Source of the DNA: a virus
Lineage: Duplodnaviria; Caudoviricetes
Reading direction: 5' to 3' (one strand)
Length of the DNA: 64,000 bases
IMG/VR virus record: IMGVR_UViG_3300017722_003538
Location: 1-64,000 of that record
The notes beneath the pieces are model-generated. The model did no database searches. It worked only from the letters and a program-made list of their open reading frames with translations, and was not told where the DNA came from. Positions 7,417-64,000 of this stretch are shown in pieces (position 1 is the first letter of the stretch; every line of letters begins with the position of its first letter). Made by a program: the position numbers and the translations under genes.

Positions 7417-7899
7417 ATGGCTAGTATTAAAAAATTCGAGGAATTTGTTTCAGAAATGGACAGAGCTGAGGAAATAGAACAAGAAGTTGTTGACAAAGGA
7501 ACTCCTGAAGTAAAAACTGAAGAGGAAACTGAAGAGGAAGCAGAAGAGGTTCAGGGATTAGATGAGGCTGGAGAAGCCAATATCGGTGTTGACCCTAAAA
7601 AAATTAAAGAAGAAACTAAACCAGTTGCCGACATGTTAAAGGCATGTTACGAAGCTGTTATTGCAGAAGCTAAAGCATGGGAAGAAGATGCACATGATGA
7701 GCATACTGTAGAAACTTACATGGCCGAAAATGCATCACTTGTTGCAGGTATGGCAGCTAATTGTGTAAAAGAAATGAAAGAAGATATGGCATCTGAAGCA
7801 TACGAAGCATGCTTAAATAAAATGACTGAAGCTTTCACTAAGAAAATTAATGAAAGCAAAGAGGCTACTGCTGCTACCGACGCTGACGATATCAACTAA
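7417..7899 (+). CDS. acidic putative internal head/core protein with capsid-targeting-like leader
   Basis: MASIKKFEEFVSE leader, very Glu-rich; late motif GATATATA at 7381-7388. Confidence 0.6.
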   Translation: MASIKKFEEFVSEMDRAEEIEQEVVDKGTPEVKTEEETEEEAEEVQGLDEAGEANIGVDPKKIKEETKPVADMLKACYEAVIAEAKAWEEDAHDEHTVETYMAENASLVAGMAANCVKEMKEDMASEAYEACLNKMTEAFTKKINESKEATAATDADDIN

Positions 7900-20878: not shown

Positions 20879-21667
20879 ATGACTAAATTTAAGACATACG
20901 GACAATTCATTAATGAATCAAAACAAGATAATATTGTCAATGTTATCCTAGATTCGTTGGAGCCTACAATCGTTGAGATGGTTGCTGCAACCGAAAAATG
21001 GTTTGTAGAGACTTTTAAACAGGAGTTCACTAAGTATGACAGAGAGATGGCTAGAATCAATTTAACCTATGATATGGTTAAATCTATTGAAATGTATACC
21101 TTACCAACCGATTCAATGTTATCAATGAACGTACGTAAGAGTGTTAAAGGAAATATTCAAATTGATGCTCAAATCCAAAGAGGAGAAGAGACTTATAGTT
21201 TTTCAACTGAAGCGATTTATGCAGGAGGACACAATATCCAAAGACTTCACTATAGATATATTGTTAAGACAAGTATTCCAAAAACTGGAGCTAATGAAAT
21301 TGCTAAAGAATACGCAGATAAAATTAAGAAAATGTCTAAGCTTGAACAACTAAATAAAGAAATAAATAGTTACGAGCAACGTATTAAAACAGAACAAGAA
21401 AAACTTGAAGTTAACTCTAAATTAACAGATGATGAGATTAAGGCAAAAGGTGACTATGTATGGCCGACTTGGAAAGAAATTGTAAAGAGAGGTGCTGCTA
21501 AAAATTATAATAATGACGAAGCATACTACTATCAAGAACAAGAAAAAAGCTTACAACGCCAAATCGATTCATGGAAACAGATTAATGTTATTTCAAAACA
21601 ACAATGGCTAGCTAGCATTAACAAATCACTTCAAAAGCTTATATCAAAACGAGATTCTATGGTATAG
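20879..21667 (+). CDS. hypothetical protein with capsid-targeting-like leader
   Basis: MTKFKTYGQFINES leader; coiled-coil C-terminal half. Confidence 0.65.
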   Translation: MTKFKTYGQFINESKQDNIVNVILDSLEPTIVEMVAATEKWFVETFKQEFTKYDREMARINLTYDMVKSIEMYTLPTDSMLSMNVRKSVKGNIQIDAQIQRGEETYSFSTEAIYAGGHNIQRLHYRYIVKTSIPKTGANEIAKEYADKIKKMSKLEQLNKEINSYEQRIKTEQEKLEVNSKLTDDEIKAKGDYVWPTWKEIVKRGAAKNYNNDEAYYYQEQEKSLQRQIDSWKQINVISKQQWLASINKSLQKLISKRDSMV

Positions 21668-50809: not shown

Positions 50810-51178
50810 ATGAAAACATTTTTAGATTACATAGCAGAACAGAACATAACTGAAAATGAGTTACAAGTACTGAACGAATCCCTTCAAACTGAATGGACCG
50901 AAGAACTTGAAGCGAAAGTTGACGCTGCTCTAGAACAATTTTCAAATACTTATAAAAATCCTGATGGAACCTATAATATCCAAGCGTTCAACGAAGAGAT
51001 TACTAACGAAGGTGTTTTAGGTAGTATCTTTGGAGGACTTGCAGGTTTTGCTCTTGGTAAAACTATTGGGAAAACTATTGCCAATATCTTGGGAATCCAA
51101 AGTGGTATAATGTATGACATGTTAACCTCAAGACTAGTAGGAGCCGCTCTTGGTTCTTCTCTTGGTAGTAGATTATAA
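50810..51178 (+). CDS. capsid-targeted protein with glycine-zipper C-terminus
   Basis: MKTFLDYIAE leader; GVLGSIFGGLAGFALG...VGAALGSSLG. Confidence 0.65.
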   Translation: MKTFLDYIAEQNITENELQVLNESLQTEWTEELEAKVDAALEQFSNTYKNPDGTYNIQAFNEEITNEGVLGSIFGGLAGFALGKTIGKTIANILGIQSGIMYDMLTSRLVGAALGSSLGSRL

Positions 51179-54849: not shown

Positions 54850-56358
54850 TTGATTTTAACATTAACGGATGATAATCAATTTTTAAGAATTGATGAAGCA
54901 ACCGAAATTGAGTTAGAGCAGATTAGAATCTCTCTGACCAAAAGAATAGAAAGCTGGAGGTTTCACCCTCTAGTTAAACGTGGAGTTTGGGATGGATACG
55001 TATCATATATTAAAGATGATAAATGGATTCCTGCCGGACTTTGGCGTCATGTTATGACAATATGTAAAGAATACCGATACGAACTTAAAATCGAGGATAT
55101 TAAGAGGCTTATTGACTCCAATATTAATGCAGAACAGTTTGAGGAATGGGCTCTAGAATTTTTTAAAGGTTCACAGTTTACTCCTCGTGATTATCAAATA
55201 GAAACTGCATATAACATTCTAAAATTTAGAAAGTGTCTAGCAGAGCTTGCAACTTCAGCAGGTAAGACACTGATTAGCTTTTTGACCGTTGCTTACATGC
55301 TTGAAAAGGGACATGCACAACGGATTCTTTTTATTGTACCTAACGTTTCATTGGTAGTTCAGGCACACGAAGATTTCCACGAATATAACGTTAGAAATAG
55401 AATTGACCTAAGAATCCAACAAATATTTGCGGGACAAGAGGTTAAAAAGAACAAAAACATAATTATTGGAACCTATCAATCATTGATTAAAAAGGATGCC
55501 GCCTATTTTGCAGAATTTGACGCAGTTATTGTCGATGAAACTCACAAGGCAAAAGGAGCCAGTATTAAAGAAATCCTTGGTAAATGTGTAAATGCAAAGT
55601 ACAGATTTGGACTTTCAGGTACAATTCCAAAGGATGGTACACTTGACAAATTAACCCTAATGAGTCAGACTGGCCCGGTTATTAGTGAAGTTAAGGCAAG
55701 TTTCTTACAAGAGCAGGGACATATTGCTCAATGTGTTGTTAAGGTTATTGAAATGAACTATGCAACTCCAAAACAGCGAACAGCTTTCATGGAATTGGCC
55801 CAAAACCGATATGAAAATAAAGATGTGTTCTCATTGGAGCAAAACTTTGTAATCACTAGTGAGGCACGACTTAATTTTATATCAAACGTAATTGCAAGAG
55901 TACCCAGAAATTCATTAGTGCTTTTCCATCGAATTGAACATGGACAGAGACTATATGAGAAGTTAAGACAAGAAAGTAACAAGAGGGTATTTTATGTTGA
56001 TGGTGGAACTGATTCAGATATTAGAGAGGAATATAAAAAGAAGATGGAGGCTGGAGATGAAATTGTAATTGTTGCAAGTTTCGGAACCTTCTCAACTGGT
56101 ATCTCTATTAAAAAAATTCACAACATATTTTTTACTGAATCATTCAAATCAGAGGTAATTATTAGACAATCGATTGGACGTGGTCTAAGGCAACATGCAT
56201 CAAAAGACAAGGTATTAATTGTTGATTTTGTCGATGATATTAGAACCTTAGAGTGGGATAATTATTTGTACAAACACGGAAAGGTACGCCAATCTATTTA
56301 TAAACAAGAGAAATTTGAATACACTGTAAAGAAAGTGGATTTTGATGGGGATATATAA
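54850..56358 (+). CDS. uvsW: SF2 DNA helicase UvsW
   Basis: WDG, PRDYQ, ATSAGKT, VDETH, GLSGT, GTFSTGISI, QSIGRGLR. Confidence 0.95.
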   Translation: MILTLTDDNQFLRIDEATEIELEQIRISLTKRIESWRFHPLVKRGVWDGYVSYIKDDKWIPAGLWRHVMTICKEYRYELKIEDIKRLIDSNINAEQFEEWALEFFKGSQFTPRDYQIETAYNILKFRKCLAELATSAGKTLISFLTVAYMLEKGHAQRILFIVPNVSLVVQAHEDFHEYNVRNRIDLRIQQIFAGQEVKKNKNIIIGTYQSLIKKDAAYFAEFDAVIVDETHKAKGASIKEILGKCVNAKYRFGLSGTIPKDGTLDKLTLMSQTGPVISEVKASFLQEQGHIAQCVVKVIEMNYATPKQRTAFMELAQNRYENKDVFSLEQNFVITSEARLNFISNVIARVPRNSLVLFHRIEHGQRLYEKLRQESNKRVFYVDGGTDSDIREEYKKKMEAGDEIVIVASFGTFSTGISIKKIHNIFFTESFKSEVIIRQSIGRGLRQHASKDKVLIVDFVDDIRTLEWDNYLYKHGKVRQSIYKQEKFEYTVKKVDFDGDI

Positions 56359-56391: not shown

Positions 56392-59300
56392 ATGGCACAA
56401 GTAAATAAAATTTCTTCATTTAAGAGTTTTACTGAAGTTAAGAATCAGGAAGCTACATTGAAACTAAGAGAAACAAACAATGCAAAAAGACAGGAAACTG
56501 TTGGTAAAATTGGAGCAATCCTTGACGAAATGGGTTTAACTTCTCTATCTGAATTGGATGAAGTTAAAAAACAGGCACTAATCAACAAAATGTTTGGAAA
56601 TGTTTCAGAAGATGAAGCAGAAGATATTGAAGATGAAATTAATAAATTAGGAGAACCTAAAAAACTAGAAGAGAGAAATGCATTCTTAGGAGCTAGAGCA
56701 AAGGCTATTGAAGAGGACAAAACTGAATTTGAGTTTAACGGTAAAACCTACAAAGTAAAAGTAAACGAAGGTAATGCTTTCGGAGACGCTGTTAGAAAAG
56801 CTAAAGAGGCTGGAGAGAAAGAATTTGAATTCGATGGTAAAACTTACAAAGTTGAGGAAGGTAATGCCTTTGGAGACGCTGTTAGAAAAGCAAAAGAGGA
56901 TGGAGAAGAGGAATTTGAATTTGACGGTAAAACTTTTAAAGTTGAAGAGGCTTTAAATGCCATAAATGAAGGTCGAGTTAAAGCGGCTACCCTACTACAA
57001 GAATTAATTGACGGAAATACTTCTAGAGCAGAAGGTATTAAAATGTCAAAAGACTTAGCTGAACATTATTTATATTGGTTAAGAACTTCTCCTTATGGCA
57101 AGAAAAATGCTGACCTACCTCTTTACATGTTAATCAAAGCAAGTTTTGTTTGGGGAATTGAAAGACAATTAGACCCTAAATTAAAAGTAGAACTTGAAGC
57201 CCTAAAAGGTAGTATTAAAGAATCAGTAGATTTTATTAATGAGGCTCGTACAATTGCTAAAATTCAATATGACTGGTCTAAACTGACAACTACAATGGCT
57301 GCAACTGCACAAAATTAGAAAACTGCCGAAGGTCCTGCTAAAGAAATGTTACTTGGAAAATTAAAAGAGATGACAGCTCAAAAGAAAGGATTAGAAACTG
57401 AATTGGATGCTGCTATCGCTGATAAAGACAAAGACATCGAATTGGTAGTTTCTGAAGCATTCTTTAGATTACCAAAAGATGTTATTGGAAATGAGTTATA
57501 TATGGCAACCCAAAATTTAGCTAACCTATATGGTTCAATTTTAGCTGGAAATGATGTTGATGCTGGTGTTATTGATACAGTTATTAAAGCACTTACCACT
57601 GTTAAAAAATCTGTTAAGAAATTTAATAACAAAGAAGAGGTTTTAGGAACTGTTTACGAAGGAGAAGTTAATGAAGCCGATATGACTAAATTCTACGATG
57701 GTTTTAAAGTTCTTGACGACAAAACCGGAAAGATGACTAAATTTCATTATGTCAAAGGTAGAAAAAATACAGATGTAGAAAACGAAGCTATTGCCAAGTT
57801 AATGAAGGCAACTGGATCATCGAGAGCAAATTTTGGAGTTCATGGATTTGTTAAAAAGGGTGAATGGAATATGGATAAAACTCCAGTATTTGAATCTACA
57901 GTTAATGAAGCTGACTCTGTAAAATCAGAAGCAATATCTAGACTTGCAGATTTTTTCCGTATAAGTCCTTACGCTCTTTCAAAATTTAATTTTGATGGAA
58001 ACGATAATATTAAAGAACTTACCAAAGTTTTAAACTCTACGTCAGATGAAGGTACTAAACTTTATTACGACACATGCATTAAATTAGCCAAAAAAGATTT
58101 AGGAATTAATGAATCTACAGTTAATGAAGCTGAAAAATTCAAAAGTACTCAAGATTTTGAAGAGTTCTTAGAGGAAATCGATGGTATGCCAGAGGTTAGA
58201 ATCAAAAGAATCATGGGTAAAGATTACATCGATACTCCAGGAGGTTTTAGAGATGAAGCAGATGATTACGATAATGACATAGTAGAGTATACTCTTTCTA
58301 ACATGGGTCGTAAAGATTTTGAAGCACTTAAAGCATGGTGGGAAAACAATGTTCAAGAATCTTTAACTGAAGGAATGATTAGCCCTAAAATGGCAAATAG
58401 TTTTAAAATTGGAAACAAAATTAAAACTCAAAAAGATACTTACACAATAACTGGATTCGGTTCAAAGACTGGGGCAACCAGAGATTTTGAAGCTGAAAAT
58501 GAAAACGGAGAACAATTTAACTTGAGAGTTTCATTAAAAGGCGCTACTGGAATTCAAGTTGCTGTTGGAGCTAGAAATTTAAACTTTCCAGAACAACAGG
58601 AAATGTTAGAGTCAGTAGTTACTGAAGCAGCCGCTAAACAATTCGATGTTGACTTCACGTCGATGGTTAGAAATATTAAATCAGGATATGGTTGGATCGA
58701 TCCAGAATACGTTGCAGATACTTGGGAAAATTCAAGTGACTCTATCGATTTTGAATTAGTTAAAGGAGAAATCTACAAAAGATTAATAGCAGCTGGTTTA
58801 TTAGCCTACGCTGATGATGAGGACGAAGAAGTAGCAGGAAAATATGTTAAATCATTAAAAGAACTTGGAATTAAAGAATCTTTTGTTAATGAAGCAGTTT
58901 CAAACCCAAGTGAATTAACTAGCTTTATTAATAAGAATGAAAGTCATTTTGCAGCATTTTTAAAACCTAAAAAAATAAACACTTCAGTTGAAGGTAATAA
59001 AGCAATTATCAAACCTGCATCTGGTAGTTTTACTATAACTGTTGATTTTGACAAATCAACTATAGATAGCACAGGAAAACCAAAAAACCCAGAATCAACT
59101 TCATACGTTGAAATAATAGAGTACATCAAAGGAAACACTAAATTTAAAGTTCTTAATGAGTCTGCAGAAGTAAATGAAGCTGAAGTTAAATCTGACGATG
59201 AATTTAAAGAATATGCAATGACTGTCTTGAAAAAAGCATTTGGAGATGACTTTGATGAGGCTAAAGCTACCGAAGTAGTTGATGGAATTCTTAAAAAATG

Positions 59301-59619
59301 TGGAGATGATTATGGTGCATGTGTTGGAATGTTAACAAGTTCATTAGGAGAATCAGTAGTTACTGAAGCATTTGATGCAAACTACTGGGAAGATTACCAA
59401 GAAGGTGCTCAAAAAACAAAAAACCCAACTGCTATGGTAATCATGCAAGACGTACAAGCTGCAGTTGAAGAGTGGAATGATAATAATGAAAACGGAGTTG
59501 AAAATGAAGTAACTCCGGCTGGAGAAAAGAAAGTCCTGAAACTTGCAAAAGAATTTGTTAAAGCAAAAGGATATATCTCATTCGATATTATTGATGCAAT
59601 GATCGCTCAGGAATCTTAA
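56392..59619 (+). CDS. modular internal-head polyprotein interrupted by an in-frame TAG (57316-57318)
   Basis: ORFs 56392-57318 and 57346-59619 are in the same frame with a single TAG between them. Leader KISSFKSFTE; recurring ES..VNEA-type linkers. Confidence 0.7.
56671..56946 (+). repeat. three tandem 30-32 aa coding repeats
   Basis: E(G/R)NAF..A..KA.E....EFEF.GKT(Y/F)KV x3; units start at 56671, 56767 and 56857 (96 and 90 bp periods). Confidence 0.9.
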
Positions 59620-59636
59620 AAATAATCTAAATAAAT

Positions 59637-59681
59637 AATACCTGATGTTTTACCATGTCAGGTATTTTTATTATATTTACA
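59637..59681 (+). promoter_or_regulatory. hairpin terminator overlapping an early promoter
   Basis: AATACCTGA...TCAGGTATT stem; TTTT 59648; TATATTTACA 59672-59681; GTTTTACCATGTCAGG is identical to 634-649. Confidence 0.7.
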
Positions 59682-59683
59682 CT

Positions 59684-59956
59684 ATGAAACATATTAACCT
59701 ATTTGAAGAGTTTTTAAATGAGTCTGACTATGCAGAGGCCAAAGCTGACCTTTCATTAAAGGCATCTGATTTACTCCAAAAAAGAAAGGAACTTAGAAAT
59801 AAAGTTAATGACCTAAACCAAAATGCGGATGACCCAAAGTCTGCAATTCAAGCCCAAATAGCAACCCTTAAAATGGCAGCCCTTGACCTTGATAATCAAA
59901 AAAATAGAATCAACGCAAACATACTTGATTTAAGCAGAAAATTAGAAAGTTTATAA
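59684..59956 (+). CDS. coiled-coil protein with capsid-targeting-like leader
   Basis: Start revised to MKHINLFEEFLNES at 59684. Confidence 0.7.
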   Translation: MKHINLFEEFLNESDYAEAKADLSLKASDLLQKRKELRNKVNDLNQNADDPKSAIQAQIATLKMAALDLDNQKNRINANILDLSRKLESL

Positions 59957-59958
59957 CA

Positions 59959-60507
59959 ATGAAACACATCCAATTATTCGAACAATTTATTAATGAGGCA
60001 AAGGTTGACTACGCTAAATATGTAAAAGACACATCTAAAAAAATATTTGCAAGAGGTGGTAACGGTCAAAATGTACTTGATTACCTGGTAGACCTTGGAA
60101 AATATATTAATAGTACGATTGACCCAAAGGCAGACCAATGGTATGGTCCACAAACACCTTCACTATTTCAAGAATTGGTTAATGGTATGGGAATTGATGA
60201 TATCGAGCATAATAATGTTTCAGGTAAGAAAAGTAGTAAAAAACCAGAAGCATTCAGAGGTGCAAGCGATTTAATTGCTGTTACAAATGACGCAATTAAC
60301 CGTGCAAAATCCAACGGAGGAAACGATGCTGGATGGGGTAAAGCCGCTTTAGAACTTGCTGGACACCTTCAAGCATATAAAGTAGGTGCTGGTAATCCAG
60401 GTCCTGGAGAAGACGGATTCTATACTGCTCCAACCTTAAGTACATTCACAAGATTGGTTGATGATATTGCCATGGAAAATATCAAAAAGAATAGAGTAAC
60501 ACAATAA
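59959..60507 (+). CDS. hypothetical protein with capsid-targeting-like leader
   Basis: MKHIQLFEQFINEA leader; weak internal duplication (WYGPQTPSLFQELV / FYTAPTLSTFTRLV). Confidence 0.7.
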   Translation: MKHIQLFEQFINEAKVDYAKYVKDTSKKIFARGGNGQNVLDYLVDLGKYINSTIDPKADQWYGPQTPSLFQELVNGMGIDDIEHNNVSGKKSSKKPEAFRGASDLIAVTNDAINRAKSNGGNDAGWGKAALELAGHLQAYKVGAGNPGPGEDGFYTAPTLSTFTRLVDDIAMENIKKNRVTQ

Positions 60508-60514
60508 TAAAACT

Positions 60515-61804
60515 ATGAAAACAAGAATCCTTAATTTTAACCGTTTCATAACTGAAAAGTATGAAGTTAAATTGAATGAGCAGTTATTATTAGAAGGTGG
60601 AGCAGCTGGACATATGTCCCATCCATTCGATAATAATGACCTAACATTTGGAGACTTTAAGAATATGATTATTGGTGGACTTCAAGGAGAATTAAACTTC
60701 GAAGAGGAGCCTACTGAAAAAACCGATGGTCAAAACGTATTTGCAACAATTCAAAATGGCGAGGTTAAATTTGCCAGAAATAAAACTGAGTTGCAAAACC
60801 CTATGAGTCTTAAGGATTTTCAAAATAAATTTGAGGGACATGCAAGTAAACTGGTACAAGATACTTTTCAATTTGCAGCCGCTGATTTAGCAACCCTGCT
60901 TATAAAGTTACCCGCTAAAACACAAGAGGAAGTGTTCCAGAATGGGCTGAACTTCATGAACATGGAGTTGATATATTCTGCTAACCCTAATGTAATTCAC
61001 TATGATGTTGATGTAATTCAATTCCATGGTATTAAGAAGACTGATGGGGCTGGAAATATAGTTGGAGATGACAATAGTGCGGCAAAAAGTGTTAGTGGAG
61101 TACTTAAATCCTTAAATGCTAATGTCGGAAAAACATTTACAATTATCCCTCCTCAAGTTATTAAACTACAAAAAGACATAAACTTTGAAGAGAATCAGAC
61201 CAAATTCTTAGGAAAACTTGAAGCTCTTAAAAATCGTTATAATTTAACCGATGCTGATGCTGTTGCTCGCTACCATGAAATGTGGTGGAGAGAACAAATT
61301 GAAACTATATTCGGTGACCTACCACAAAATATCAAAGAGGGTCTATTATTAAGATGGGCATATGACGATAAGAAAACCCTAAACCTTCGTTCATTGGACA
61401 AAGAATTAACTCCAGCTCAAGCTGAAGCAGTTAAGAAATTTGACAAAGAGGATGTTAAAAAGAAATTCAAAGAAAATATTCGACCATTTGAAGACCTTTT
61501 CTTAGAATTAGGAAGTGTTATCTTAAAGAATGCTAGTAACTTTGTTGCTGCTTCACCAGACAAAGAAATGCAAAGGTTACATAATGAAATCCGAACCGAA
61601 GCCGATAAGATTAAACTTAATGGAGATGTAACTCAAATTGAGAAAGTTGCAAAAGAACTTGACCGACTTGAAAGAATTGGAGGAATCCAATCTATTATAC
61701 CGACTGAAGGTATTGTATTTTCATACAAAGGACACATGTACAAATTAACAGGAACATTCGCTGCTATTAATCAGTTGATGGGAATTATAAAATACGGAAG
61801 ATAA
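60515..61804 (+). CDS. ligase-like nucleotidyltransferase-fold protein (KxDG motif) with leader
   Basis: EGGAAGHMSHPFD, TEKTDGQN (motif I), MELIY, EGIVF (motif IV), YKLTG (motif V). Confidence 0.65.
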   Translation: MKTRILNFNRFITEKYEVKLNEQLLLEGGAAGHMSHPFDNNDLTFGDFKNMIIGGLQGELNFEEEPTEKTDGQNVFATIQNGEVKFARNKTELQNPMSLKDFQNKFEGHASKLVQDTFQFAAADLATLLIKLPAKTQEEVFQNGLNFMNMELIYSANPNVIHYDVDVIQFHGIKKTDGAGNIVGDDNSAAKSVSGVLKSLNANVGKTFTIIPPQVIKLQKDINFEENQTKFLGKLEALKNRYNLTDADAVARYHEMWWREQIETIFGDLPQNIKEGLLLRWAYDDKKTLNLRSLDKELTPAQAEAVKKFDKEDVKKKFKENIRPFEDLFLELGSVILKNASNFVAASPDKEMQRLHNEIRTEADKIKLNGDVTQIEKVAKELDRLERIGGIQSIIPTEGIVFSYKGHMYKLTGTFAAINQLMGIIKYGR

Positions 61805-61805
61805 A

Positions 61806-62174
61806 ATGAAACACTTTAAACTATACGAGGAATTCGTAAATGAGTCTATAATTAACGAAGGCATAAGTATGCCAAAAGGATATAATCCATCTAAAGATGT
61901 TAAAGATGGTCCTGAAATTTGCAAATCTATAATAGAAATAGTTAATAAATATGCAAAACTAAATCCTATGAAATTCAAAAAATTGATTAAGAAATCTACT
62001 GAAGACTATCCGTACATTGAACACACTGCAACAGAAGCATCTATCATTGATTTTTATATAATCTTAGCTGATTATGTTGTATTAGAAACAGATACTTCTA
62101 AAGAGGATAAATTAAAAATGGAAAAAGAAATAACAGACTTAATCAATAAAAAAACTGGGATAAACTTTTATTAA
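61806..62174 (+). CDS. hypothetical protein with capsid-targeting-like leader
   Basis: MKHFKLYEEFVNESIINEG. Confidence 0.7.
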   Translation: MKHFKLYEEFVNESIINEGISMPKGYNPSKDVKDGPEICKSIIEIVNKYAKLNPMKFKKLIKKSTEDYPYIEHTATEASIIDFYIILADYVVLETDTSKEDKLKMEKEITDLINKKTGINFY

Positions 62175-62187
62175 AACAATATATAAT

Positions 62188-62508
62188 ATGAAACACATTA
62201 AACTATTTGAAGAGCATATAAACGAGGCTATCGATAAACCATCATTAGATTCTCAAACAGGATTAATTTATTATTTTGATATACCATTCACATCTGAAGA
62301 TATTGAGGAAATATTAAGTTCTTCTAAAACTGTGTTGAACGCAAAATTTACACCTAATAAACAATTTGAAATTCAACCAATGATTTTTATCAAAGATAAA
62401 GTTAATGGTGGAGAACACACTTTTAGTGTTTCACAAATTGGTATATTAGGTTCATTTTACGAAAAGAATAAAAACAACACAGCATCCCGAAAAGATTTTA
62501 CCAATTAA
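62188..62508 (+). CDS. hypothetical protein with capsid-targeting-like leader
   Basis: MKHIKLFEEHINEA; AATATATA at 62178-62185. Confidence 0.7.
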   Translation: MKHIKLFEEHINEAIDKPSLDSQTGLIYYFDIPFTSEDIEEILSSSKTVLNAKFTPNKQFEIQPMIFIKDKVNGGEHTFSVSQIGILGSFYEKNKNNTASRKDFTN

Positions 62509-62519
62509 AAAACAAAGAG

Positions 62520-64000
62520 ATGGCATTACAAAAATTAAGAGAGTACTTTAACGAAACCAATAGAGAAACCTTTATTGATATGTTAAAAAATAGAGTGTTA
62601 GTGACTGAGAAAGTTGCAGCACCTACATTTCTTGTTAAAAGAAATCTTGATGGGTTTGAATATTTTAAATCTTCAAATTCAGACAAATTAAATCTAGTTG
62701 ACCGAACTGTTATCTCCCTATATGAGATTGCAATCAACTACATGCAAAGTTTGCCAAGCTCTACTAAAAACCAAATGCCACTTGATTGGAGATTTGGTTT
62801 TGAATACCTACCAGAAGTTAATGTATCTAAAATTAAATACGGAAAGACCCCAAAAAATAACCTAATCCTAACACATATTCAACAATTAGGAGAAGCAGAC
62901 AGGGTTAAGAAAACCATAAATGATCCGGTAATCCTAAATAAATGGGCAAAAATTCTGGATGTTCAACAACCAAGCGTAATTTTTGATGGCTATTTATCTC
63001 AATTACAGAGAGATGAACTTCTTGAATTACTTGGAATGAGCGATAGAGAATTTAGCGAATCATTTGATTATTTAGAGGAAACAAAAGACAAGCTTAGTTT
63101 TACCAGTAAAATAGTTAAACTTTTTAATTCAAGCGCGTTTGAAACTGCCTTAAATTCAGATATTGATGATGAATTTGATGGATTGGTTGTTAATTTTATT
63201 GACGAAAAATCGATGAAGTCTTTTAAATTAGAGGATTTTACCAGAAAAACTGGAATGGATAACTCTTCAAGCCACATGTACCAAATTGCAGTGACTGACT
63301 TTTTAGAATTTGCAACTCAATTTAATATCGACGAAATCCAACTCGAAGACGAGAGAGCAGACTACAGATATCTTGAAATAATGTCGATAATGTTTAATGA
63401 ATATGTTGACAAGAATTCCTCAAAATATATTGGAGTTAATTTTGAAAGCGCTGAATTTTCATCAGCACAATCTTTTAAATTAAATACAAAATACATTCTT
63501 GACGAAAAGACCCTAAAATATACATCAAACGATATTTTAGCAGAGTTACTAAAAATGGTTTTAAGTTCTTTTAGAAAGAAGAGAACCAAAACAAGCGACC
63601 TAATCGACGAGGACACTATGAATCGTATGAATGAAATTATCGAAAAAATCAATCAGAAAATATTTGTTGAAAGTACTGACGAGAATGCAATATATGATTA
63701 CCAAAATTTTATGTTGCGCGACAGGATTAAAACTTCAGTCAACCTAAATGAGGCACTTAAACTGACTCATGTTGAACAAGGAAAACAGCCAGTAAATATG
63801 TTTGTTGGAAGATTTCAGCCCTTTACATTAGGACATGCTAAAGTTTTAGAGACTATTCATAAAGAAAATGGCTATCCAGTAGTTGTATTTCTAGTTAAAG
63901 CAAAAACCAAAAAGAAGGGTGATGAATTTAGCAGACCATACGATGAGAAGACCCAAATTGAAATGTTTAAAAACGTTCAAAAACAATACACATTCCTTAA
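62520..64000 (+). CDS. degenerate RNA-ligase-like domain fused to an HxGH-type cytidylyl/adenylyltransferase (3'-partial)
   Basis: Not in the ORF track because it runs off the window. My translation: MALQKLREYFNE...VTEKVAAP...FGFEY...LNEA...MFVGRFQPFTLGH (63807-63836). Confidence 0.75.
   Translation, partial: MALQKLREYFNETNRETFIDMLKNRVLVTEKVAAPTFLVKRNLDGFEYFKSSNSDKLNLVDRTVISLYEIAINYMQSLPSSTKNQMPLDWRFGFEYLPEVNVSKIKYGKTPKNNLILTHIQQLGEADRVKKTINDPVILNKWAKILDVQQPSVIFDGYLSQLQRDELLELLGMSDREFSESFDYLEETKDKLSFTSKIVKLFNSSAFETALNSDIDDEFDGLVVNFIDEKSMKSFKLEDFTRKTGMDNSSSHMYQIAVTDFLEFATQFNIDEIQLEDERADYRYLEIMSIMFNEYVDKNSSKYIGVNFESAEFSSAQSFKLNTKYILDEKTLKYTSNDILAELLKMVLSSFRKKRTKTSDLIDEDTMNRMNEIIEKINQKIFVESTDENAIYDYQNFMLRDRIKTSVNLNEALKLTHVEQGKQPVNMFVGRFQPFTLGHAKVLETIHKENGYPVVVFLVKAKTKKKGDEFSRPYDEKTQIEMFKNVQKQYTFL

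Follow-up and report, generated by a model that had tools for sequence, protein, structure and literature searches.

Two neighbouring genes, here called gene A and gene B, form a conserved module in a clade of uncultured large T4-like myophages. They were analysed in the first 64,000 bases (the window) of a 93,070-base viral record, IMGVR_UViG_3300017722_003538, which has a CheckV completeness of 34%. Gene A is modelled as an intact lysine-nucleotidylating enzyme of the ligase/capping superfamily whose nearest structural relatives are the ATP-dependent RNA ligases, and gene B appears to join a second ligase fold to a nucleotidyltransferase of the HIGH superfamily. The predicted folds of both are highly probable, and a functional coupling of ligase fold and HIGH enzyme is likely. 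The full proposal, in which A is an active ligase-type enzyme, B combines a ligase fold with an active HIGH enzyme, the two take part in joining nucleic acid (likely RNA), and A is loaded into the head and injected, is tentative and falls a little short of probable when all its links are taken together.

Predicted ligase folds of genes A and B

Gene A was aligned with 29 homologs (34-86% identity). The residues invariant across these 30 sequences are E68, K69, D71 and G72 of motif I, R88, E151 of motif III, H171 after F170 in motif IIIa (FHG, aa 170-172; aa, amino acids), P396, E398, G399 and F402 of motif IV, and K410, T412 and G413 of motif V. Motif I has the superfamily's KxDG form with its nucleophilic lysine, and K69 is the predicted nucleotidyl-accepting residue; motifs III, IIIa, IV and V follow in order on a nucleotidyltransferase fold that is matched at a Z of only ~9. 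An earlier reading of the DNA by eye and open reading frame (ORF) list (the sequence-only reading) had picked out TEKTDG, EGIVF and YKL in gene A; a check of the coordinates places all three where it put them, and they are invariant throughout the alignment.

The AlphaFold2 model of gene A (mean predicted local distance difference test score, pLDDT, 85.4; predicted template modelling score, pTM, 0.83) has a disordered stretch at residues 16-32 (pLDDT < 50) and a helix block at about 187-395 that parts motif IIIa from motif IV. A Foldseek search with this model ranks fungal Trl1 ligase domains, T4 Rnl1 and archaeal RNA ligases highest, at weak E-values (best 5.3e-3). On re-alignment with VIA, rows 1-37 are all ligases, among them NgrRnl (6vt3, Z 9.1 over 198 residues, root-mean-square deviation [rmsd] 4.7), Trl1 (6n67, Z 8.7), T4 Rnl1 (5tt6, 8.5), REL1 (1xdn, 8.3) and T4 Rnl2 (2hvr, 7.9). 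A second, independent structure search over 48,161 representative chains returned ligases in rows 1-13 (best Z 8.8). The ligase alignments span model residues 29-423 and cover 165-208 residues. Gene A is called a ligase because the lists are uniformly topped by ligases, because 165-208 residues are aligned and because the five catalytic motifs are invariant, these points being taken together. As modelled, it is a covalent nucleotidyltransferase of ligase type outside all named RNA ligase families.

Its likeness to the ATP-dependent RNA ligases (Naegleria NgrRnl/Rnl5, fungal Trl1, T4 Rnl1 and Trypanosoma brucei REL1) is one of fold (Z 8.3-9.1 over 175-200 residues), of motif order (I, III, IIIa, IV, V) and of the invariant lysine. 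It differs from them in having no detectable sequence similarity, a helical insertion of ~210 residues between motifs IIIa and IV, one conserved lysine rather than two in motif V, and no family-specific flanking domain. No single ligase family is favoured, the Z values for Rnl5, Trl1/Rnl1 and Rnl2/REL1 all lying within 1. Gene A matches none of the named RNA ligase families (PF09414, PF09511 and others) at E <= 0.1, and none of 30 family members matches a named ligase family at E <= 0.01. Profile searches of PDB sequences with two gene A-family profiles found no ligase. Searched as a profile, the helical insert of gene A (residues 207-303, window 61133-61423) drew only weak rows, to eS6, a eukaryotic ribosomal protein, and to dynamin-like proteins (E 0.007-0.03), which are probably an effect of lysine-rich helical composition.

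The gene A family is large. It has 1072 matches among 8000 scored candidates of a 90%-identity collection, and the 120 listed of these 1072 are all unnamed or 'hypothetical protein'. At the level of 50%-identity representatives, 1847 clusters match at E <= 1e-3, and 516 match at E <= 1e-30. Of 50,697 phage records searched by tblastn, three contain the family: Microcystis phage Mel-JY01, the only cultured carrier among them, and two uncultured huge phages.

Gene B is cut by the end of the window; the full record carries it to 64391, giving 623 aa, so the rest of the gene sought by the sequence-only reading is at hand. Its 22 aligned sequences (61-91% identity) are highly conserved. The motifs noted earlier (VTEKVAA, LNEA and GRFQPFTLGH) are present at the positions given for them. 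In the first, a variant motif I, V28, E30 and K31 are invariant and positions 33-35 vary (A/Q/S, A/G/S and P/S/A). The invariant stretches FGFEY, LILTHI, DGLVV and FKLED fall on the expected strands of the model and may represent motifs III, IIIa, IV and V, the last two by order and spacing. Over the IV/V-like stretch E218, G221, L222, F226, S234, K236, E238, D239 and F240 are invariant, and the model places strands at 222-227 and 232-237.

Foldseek matches gene B to full-length T4 Rnl2 (2hvr_A, E 6.1e-6, probability 1.00, 368 columns), so that residues 1 to ~380 appear to correspond to the whole enzyme (2hvr, 2hvq), with the nucleotidyltransferase fold and the C-terminal helical domain of the Rnl2 type. 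The complete Rnl2-type motif I, which we take to be K-x-H-G-x-N, is absent: gene B keeps just E30-K31 (22/22), followed by A/Q/S and A/G/S, and unlike Rnl2 it is fused to a HIGH nucleotidyltransferase. Residues 20-240 are modelled at pLDDT ~80-90, and the stretches 239-253, 300-338, 383-415 and 603-617 fall below 50. Gene B has no match to PF09414 or PF18043, PF01467 being its sole Pfam family at E <= 0.1; a language-model look-alike search places residues 1-415 beside viral PF09414/T4_Rnl2_C clusters (score 0.93), which we treat as a lead only. Co-folding of gene B (20-605) with gene A (23-429) scored 0.00 in two runs without controls and speaks neither way. Structure prediction and search thus bear out the ligase-like calls that the sequence-only reading had made for both proteins, with a ligase fold and an HxGH fold found on structural search.

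The HIGH domain and its pairing with the A-type fold

The C-terminal part of gene B has the signatures, the Rossmann-like fold and the above-cut-off profile matches that mark the HIGH superfamily (PF01467, 29.8 bits against a cut-off of 21; TIGR00125, 36.2 against 27.7). GRFQPFTLGH aligns with GRFQPFH(K/L)GH of 1f9a and 2qjo, and ISATAVR with the corresponding signature. By VIA the nearest structure is the nicotinamide mononucleotide (NMN) adenylyltransferase (NMNAT) of M. jannaschii (1f9a, Z 14.7 over 156 residues, rmsd 2.7), in a near-tie with phosphopantetheine adenylyltransferase (PPAT, 14.3) and NadM (14.2); Foldseek likewise returns NadM (2qjo, E 5.2e-6), archaeal NMNAT and PPAT. The tests for NMNAT proper score far below their cut-offs (TIGR01527, 34.5 bits against 181.2; NF003791, 27.3 against 409). 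The sequence-only reading had named an NMNAT or cytidylyltransferase. A HIGH nucleotidyltransferase it is, whereas NMNAT is just the nearest relative, tied with PPAT.

Compared with the archaeal NMNATs (MJ0541 and that of M. thermoautotrophicum) and bacterial NadM, residues 423-601 of gene B align at Z 14.1-14.7 (rmsd 2.7-3.2) and share the GRFQPF-x-x-GH and ISxTxxR signatures. In contrast to them, the domain has a threonine in place of the first histidine of the signature, a feature shared with PPAT; it is fused to a ligase fold and has no Nudix or kinase partner domain. The residues mutated in the M. thermoautotrophicum NMNAT (R11, H19 and R136) would correspond to R431, H439 and R567 of gene B. 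The HIGH enzyme is apparently active.

The pairing of the two genes was surveyed in the 80 best IMG/VR loci, 45 with a stand-alone gene A (58-97% identity) and 35 others. Gene B is the next gene, on the same strand and usually after a gap of a few dozen bases, in 43 of the 45; in the other two the contig ends just after A. It is one ORF in 40 of these 43 loci, is cut by the end of the locus in two, and is split in one (L032), where its two parts are separate ORFs. The gene pair proposed by the sequence-only reading is therefore conserved, but in the present record the two are not adjacent, two small leader-bearing ORFs standing between them (Table 1). In the other 35 loci the A domain ends proteins of 508-1274 aa.

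Fusion of the two enzymes is common in the wider family. Local profiles were built for the A domain, for the two parts of gene B and for the N-terminal HIGH domain of four fused homologs, and the 150 best cluster representatives, to which those four sequences themselves belong, were scored. In 104 of them a HIGH domain precedes the A domain within one protein, and none was detected in the other 46; gene B's ligase-like part is found in none of the 150. The A domain closes the protein in 148, and more than 100 residues precede it in 131. A Pfam scan of 21 A-family proteins chosen for length (20 representatives and the Mel-JY01 protein) found CTP_transf_like in 9, a Zeta_toxin/AAA_33 kinase in 4, DUF5661 in 1, a CCA-adding/PolyA_pol head with an RNA-binding domain in 1, a sub-cut-off MTPAP-like match in 1, and nothing in 8. 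The Mel-JY01 protein is a 639-aa HIGH-A fusion annotated 'cytidylyltransferase like protein'. A-family proteins of ~670 aa carry N-terminal extensions of ~260 aa.

A comparable pair occurs in cyanophages. In a language-model search, the clusters next to gene A have PF19782 (DUF6267) in 23-24% of their members (score 0.98), and eight cyanophage DUF6267 proteins were taken from annotated records for profile comparison and inspection of their loci. PF19782 matches none of 30 gene A-family members at E <= 0.01, and the profile-profile comparison of gene A with DUF6267 is not significant (hhalign E 0.018, probability 2.6%); the alignment matches motif I first, then an N-x-I-x-Y stretch and then the motif IIIa histidine. 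DUF6267 is laid out as K50-x-D52-G53, H171, then E366-G367 and a lysine near the C-terminus. Gene A is probably a distant relative of DUF6267 and not a member. The gene after DUF6267 is a 'cytidylyltransferase' or an unnamed equivalent in seven of the eight loci, two of which label it just as hypothetical, 'similar to gp184'; in S-CAM1 its place is an unannotated gap. Common to both systems are a KxDG protein with motifs IV and V at the far C-terminus after a long insertion, and then a HIGH enzyme; the cyanophages differ in having no Rnl2-like part. The cyanophage block (OL473597, 76000-85500, and seven others) reads hypothetical protein (~410-470 aa), DUF6267, cytidylyltransferase, hypothetical protein. 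A full-text literature search returned no paper on DUF6267.

In Synechococcus phage S-SZBM1 the gene directly upstream of gene 140 (gene 141) is DUF6267 (E 3.7e-130), and gene 140 carries PF01467 and opens with a leader spaced like that of gene A. The virion proteomics section of the S-SZBM1 report describes detection, by liquid chromatography-mass spectrometry of CsCl-purified virions, of the products of gene 140 ('cytidylyltransferase', 362 aa) and of the gene that comes after it, 139 (hypothetical, 457 aa) (PMC9146016). This detection may be taken as a parallel for the HIGH enzyme of gene B, not as proof.

Leaders, proposed packaging and genomic context

Gene A opens with a leader of the kind that targets proteins to the T4 capsid (Table 1). 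The pattern is kept in all 45 stand-alone orthologs, down to 58% identity, and the next 7-19 residues vary; a second site, LNE, follows, and by family search the family-wide domain sets in past it, near residue 20-23. The leader spacing with its terminal glutamate is present in gene A and is not conserved at the N-terminus of gene B, where the glutamate at position 12 varies (E, K, A, N, Q, S; 22 homologs). The leader that the sequence-only reading saw on gene A thus stands, and the gene B N-terminus is no conserved cleavable leader.

A six-frame scan for [FY]-x-x-[FHY]-[ILVT]-[NTS]-E gave 12 hits on the plus strand, 10 of them at ORF starts, and none on the minus strand. A looser pattern is found in the first 30 residues of 13 of the 93 ORFs of the record, against 14 hits in the other 26,976 residues, which is ~9 times the chance rate at ORF starts; nine of these 13 ORFs surround genes A and B, at 59.6-68.1 kb. 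According to the sections on head cargo of two T4 papers, the first 10 residues of internal protein IPIII suffice for loading, residues 4 and 7 serving targeting and 8 and 10 processing, cleavage of T4 cargo follows glutamate, and Alt also has a C-terminal propeptide (PMC9026906, PMC3012670). The spacing found here (aromatic at -6 and -3, hydrophobic at -2, Glu at 0) is the T4 spacing given in the corresponding section of PMC9026906. A T4-type head protease (PF03420) is above its cut-off in four of five larger relatives that carry gene A at 60-86% identity.

The last 12 residues of gene B (IMTFEQFINKDI, record 64353-64388, beyond the window) are a copy of the leader core. T614, F615 and F618 of this tail are invariant (22/22), and most homologs have a glutamate just before it. 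By analogy with T4 Alt, the tail may be a C-terminal targeting propeptide. Gene B may also be cut into two proteins at LNEA, because this sequence sits in a disordered linker (383-415) and its glutamate is kept in 22/22; E411 is invariant and the form hydrophobic-(N/S)-E-(A/G) holds throughout. A hydrophobic-x-Glu followed by a small or polar residue occurs in 17 of 35 fused A-family members within the 25 residues that precede the domain; for control windows the figure is 68 of 362.

Leaders here and those of T4 IPI-III and Alt share the targeting and processing spacing and the glutamate at the cut, here on many unrelated neighbouring proteins, and Alt's C-terminal propeptide parallels the conserved tail of gene B. 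The present leaders are ~3 residues longer, and their cargo would be nucleic-acid enzymes and polyproteins, where that of T4 is small basic proteins or an ADP-ribosyltransferase. On balance, packaging of the module in the head is somewhat favoured.

Near-identical leaders of the type MKHI-x-(L/T)-(F/Y)-E-x-F-x-N-E open at least eight small ORFs of 66-193 aa, located at 59645-60507 and 61806-62508 of the window and at 66748-68122 and 83016-83216 of the record, with no family match among those scanned. Leader-like starts also occur far from this cluster, in the ORFs at 50810-51178 (MKTFLDYIAEQ), which directly follows a tail-tube-like gene, 20879-21667 (MTKFKTYGQFINES) and 7417-7899 (MASIKKFEEFVSEM). 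Two long ORFs (window 57346-59619 and record 64416-66746; 757 and 776 aa) have no family match and look like strings of modules linked by a recurring (V/T)-(N/T)-E-(A/S/G) word (STVNEA, VVTEA and FVNEA, for example); both are possible head-cargo polyproteins that the prohead protease would cut.

Table 1. Positions of genes A and B, their motifs and intervening or nearby features (numbering of the record; the window ends at 64000)
Feature	Position	Strand	Basis
Gene A, 429 aa, covalent-nucleotidyltransferase (RNA-ligase-like) protein	60515..61804	+	ORF, fold model, motifs
Gene A N-terminal leader MKTRILNFNRFITE: F -6, F -3, I -2, E 0 (F8, F11, I12, E14)	60515..60556	+	
Gene A motif I TEKTDG, aa 67-72	60713..60730	+	E68, K69, D71, G72 invariant in 30/30 sequences
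Gene A helical insertion, ~210 aa (aa 187-395), between motifs IIIa and IV	61073..61699	+	model secondary structure
Gene A motifs IV and V (PTEGIVF ... YKLTG), PTEGIVFSYKGHMYKLTG, aa 396-413	61700..61753	+	
Small ORF, 122 aa, leader MKHFKLYEEFVNES, between genes A and B	61806..62174	+	no Pfam/PHROG match
Small ORF, 106 aa, leader MKHIKLFEEHINEA, between genes A and B	62188..62508	+	no Pfam/PHROG match above threshold
Gene B, 623 aa, Rnl2-like ligase fold and helical domain, linker, HIGH nucleotidyltransferase, conserved C-terminal tail	62520..64000 (to 64391 in record)	+	
Gene B variant motif I VTEKVAA, aa 28-34	62601..62621	+	lysine kept, usual following D/H-G lost
Gene B motif IV/V-like stretch E-x-DGLVVNF ... 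SFKLEDF, aa 218-240	63171..63239	+	invariant residues, model strands
Gene B LNEA linker, aa 409-412, between ligase-like part and HIGH domain; candidate head-protease site	63744..63755	+	
Gene B HIGH-superfamily nucleotidyltransferase domain, aa 423-601	63786..64000 (ends 64322 in record)	+	PF01467, TIGR00125, fold
Gene B GRFQPFTLGH, aa 430-439, (H/T)xGH signature and upstream arginine	63807..63836	+	invariant in 22/22
Gene B second signature ISATAVR, aa 561-567	record 64200-64220, outside window		invariant
UvsW helicase with UvsW_N domain	54850-56358		Pfam match

PHROG and Pfam matches identify the source as a distant T4-like myophage. The window has a GC content of ~33% and nearly all its genes on the plus strand, with matches to baseplate wedge, hub, tail tube and sheath pieces, a gp32-like single-stranded DNA-binding protein, primase and a RuvC-like resolvase; beyond it the record encodes ribonucleotide reductase, UvsX/RecA, a gp41-type helicase, a gp46/47-like pair, gp15 and a split family-B polymerase. 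Contigs with close gene A homologs reach 236-261 kb, and the phage is therefore probably a jumbo phage.

Several other genes of the record deserve mention. Directly after the UvsW helicase gene (window 56392-57318) is a 308-aa acidic protein with no solid Pfam or PHROG match, in which a unit of ~30 residues, F-E/D-F-x-GKT-Y/F-KV ... EGNAFGDAVRKAKE, occurs three times in tandem. Record positions 74938-76122 encode a 5-hydroxymethyldeoxyuridine (5-hmdU) DNA kinase-like helical domain (PF18723, E 9.8e-9), and positions 76634-78028 and 84261-85454 a family-B DNA polymerase split into two ORFs ~6 kb apart; the PF18723 match suggests that the phage DNA carries a thymidine hypermodification. About 5 kb downstream of gene B (record 69317-70753), a 478-aa protein combines DUF2828 (E 2.5e-32) and DUF7788 (E 5e-53) and contains a DxSGS-type metal-site word. 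We take DUF2828 to be TROVE-like, and the protein may presumably be a TROVE/vWA-like RNA-binding platform. ROT/TROVE proteins of some jumbo phages are described as RNA-repair platforms in section 3.4.9 of PMC7824862.

Proposed function and alternatives

In the mechanism that we propose, gene A would act as a ligase-type enzyme whose nucleotidyltransferase domain is split by the helical insertion, and gene B would supply a second ligase fold, possibly competent for sealing only, together with a HIGH adenylyl- or cytidylyltransferase. The module would reseal breaks in nucleic acid, most probably in RNA (cleaved tRNA, for instance), and the HIGH enzyme would supply or recycle an adenylylated cofactor or intermediate for sealing. 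Gene A, and perhaps gene B by way of its leader-like tail, would be loaded into the prohead by the T4-type capsid-targeting leader and trimmed after glutamate by a gp21-type protease; injection with the DNA would let the gene A protein act before phage gene expression. Whether RNA is the substrate is evenly balanced. A known parallel is tRNA anticodon-loop repair by T4 Pnkp and Rnl1, which also involves a phage ligase proposed to undo host RNA cleavage, and some A-family proteins are fused to P-loop kinases; the lineage differs in that no kinase or phosphatase was found in it. The T4 Pnkp and Rnl1 proteins are made after infection and are not known to be packaged.

A number of results weigh against this proposal. 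Gene A has no Pfam, PHROG, NCBIfam or PDB-sequence match, and searches of these collections tie neither it nor the N-terminal part of gene B to any ligase; the structure tool rates a Z of ~9 as middling, and Z 7-8 is common for models without a clear match. The gene B model is of moderate quality (mean pLDDT 69.1, pTM 0.41), all 50 rows shown in a second look with VIA belong to the HIGH domain and none to the Rnl2-like part, and a paralogous relation between gene A and the ligase part of gene B was rejected, with no similarity by BLASTP or by hhalign of the alignments. A HIGH domain at E <= 1e-5 was detected in only four of the 35 more distant loci, and a polyprotein fusion that is later cut could reflect shared delivery and not shared chemistry. 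The HIGH domain of gene B is a remote relative of S-SZBM1 gene 140 (hhalign E 0.0032, probability 9.9%). PF03420 is absent from the 93-kb record, itself 34% complete. No AAA_33-type (polynucleotide) kinase was found in the record or four relatives, and a CCA-adding enzyme was found in one relative among the five records examined (all five 34-76% complete); tRNA genes and Rfam families are absent from the window and the next 29 kb. A complete heal-and-seal form of the RNA repair put forward by the sequence-only reading is weakened because the polynucleotide kinase was not found.

The proteins may instead be cytoplasmic phage enzymes whose shared N-terminal words arise from cassette shuffling or translation-start context. 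The variable N-terminal glutamate of gene B fits such an origin, as does the position of the genes beside replication genes (UvsW helicase); so too does the T4 late-promoter word TATAAATA, which is not enriched in the window (14 occurrences against 12.1 expected) and was not found near gene A or B, a result that also tells against the main proposal. We nevertheless consider this account doubtful, since it has to face a leader spacing held in every gene A ortholog amid variable following residues, the enrichment of the pattern at N-termini, a T4-type protease in the lineage and a leader of the same kind on the cyanophage enzyme detected in virions. That restoration of NAD+ is the main job, with a true NMNAT in gene B working against NAD+-depleting defences and the ligase folds accessory or otherwise employed, is unlikely. 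Its appeal lies in NadM and archaeal NMNAT being the nearest relatives of the HIGH domain in both sequence and structure, in the conserved GRFQPF(H/T)xGH and ISxTxxR signatures, and in the NMNAT-type HIGH enzymes of jumbo-phage NAD+ salvage described in section 3.4.8 of PMC7824862; set against these are the equivalog score (34.5 against 181), the structural tie with PPAT and the fusion of HIGH and ligase domains in 104 of 150 clusters, which it leaves unexplained. General family scans of the ORFs, none aimed at these families, gave no nicotinamide phosphoribosyltransferase or Nudix partner.

Very unlikely, in our judgement, is a DNA target, with the module sealing or modifying phage DNA ends at entry or making an activated donor for DNA hypermodification. 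The ligase fold does not discriminate between substrates, and DNA ligases (of African swine fever virus, T7, Chlorella virus and human) also match gene A, at Z 5-7; the record encodes the 5-hmdU DNA kinase-like domain, and HIGH enzymes commonly produce activated donors. RNA ligases, however, outscore DNA ligases in all three structure searches, no OB domain of the DNA-ligase type was seen, the match of the gene B N-terminal part to Rnl2 extends over the Rnl2 C-terminal domain, and a CCA-adding enzyme head and polynucleotide-kinase-like P-loop kinases are among the fusion partners of the A family.

The ligase fold and the NMNAT-like enzyme might carry out a single, undescribed two-enzyme ligation chemistry that arrives ready-made in the capsid, which we consider improbable. 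In one version the HIGH domain would adenylylate a 5'-phosphate RNA end, chemically the same reaction as NMN + ATP -> NAD+, and the motif-I-poor ligase fold of gene B would only seal. In the other, the ligases would take AMP from NAD+ and the fused NMNAT would rebuild NAD+ from the released NMN; if true, the kit would be independent of a host whose NAD+ is destroyed.

Taken singly, RNA ligases, NMNAT-type enzymes and capsid-targeted cargo have all been described before. As far as our literature searches reach, which do not cover a 2016 survey of RNA repair, the ligase-fold family, its fusion or pairing with a HIGH enzyme and its capsid-type leader are new. A search by title and start of abstract returned nothing on a packaged phage ligase, and the section of PMC9503650 on packaged domains discusses ARTs, Macro, NADAR and Nudix and not ligases.

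The gene A family is among the larger uncharacterised phage enzyme families, with nearly all its clusters from uncultured viruses, and the leader rule lets the injected protein set of uncultured T4-like phages be read from sequence. If the proposal is true, an A-type ligase fold and a HIGH enzyme would form a recurrent repair unit distinct from T4 Pnkp/Rnl1, Rnl2 and RtcB, and T4-like phages would deliver pre-made repair enzymes in the head, ahead of phage gene expression. The DUF6267/'cytidylyltransferase' core pair of marine cyanophages would also gain a function, and the presence of that enzyme in virion proteomes would be accounted for.

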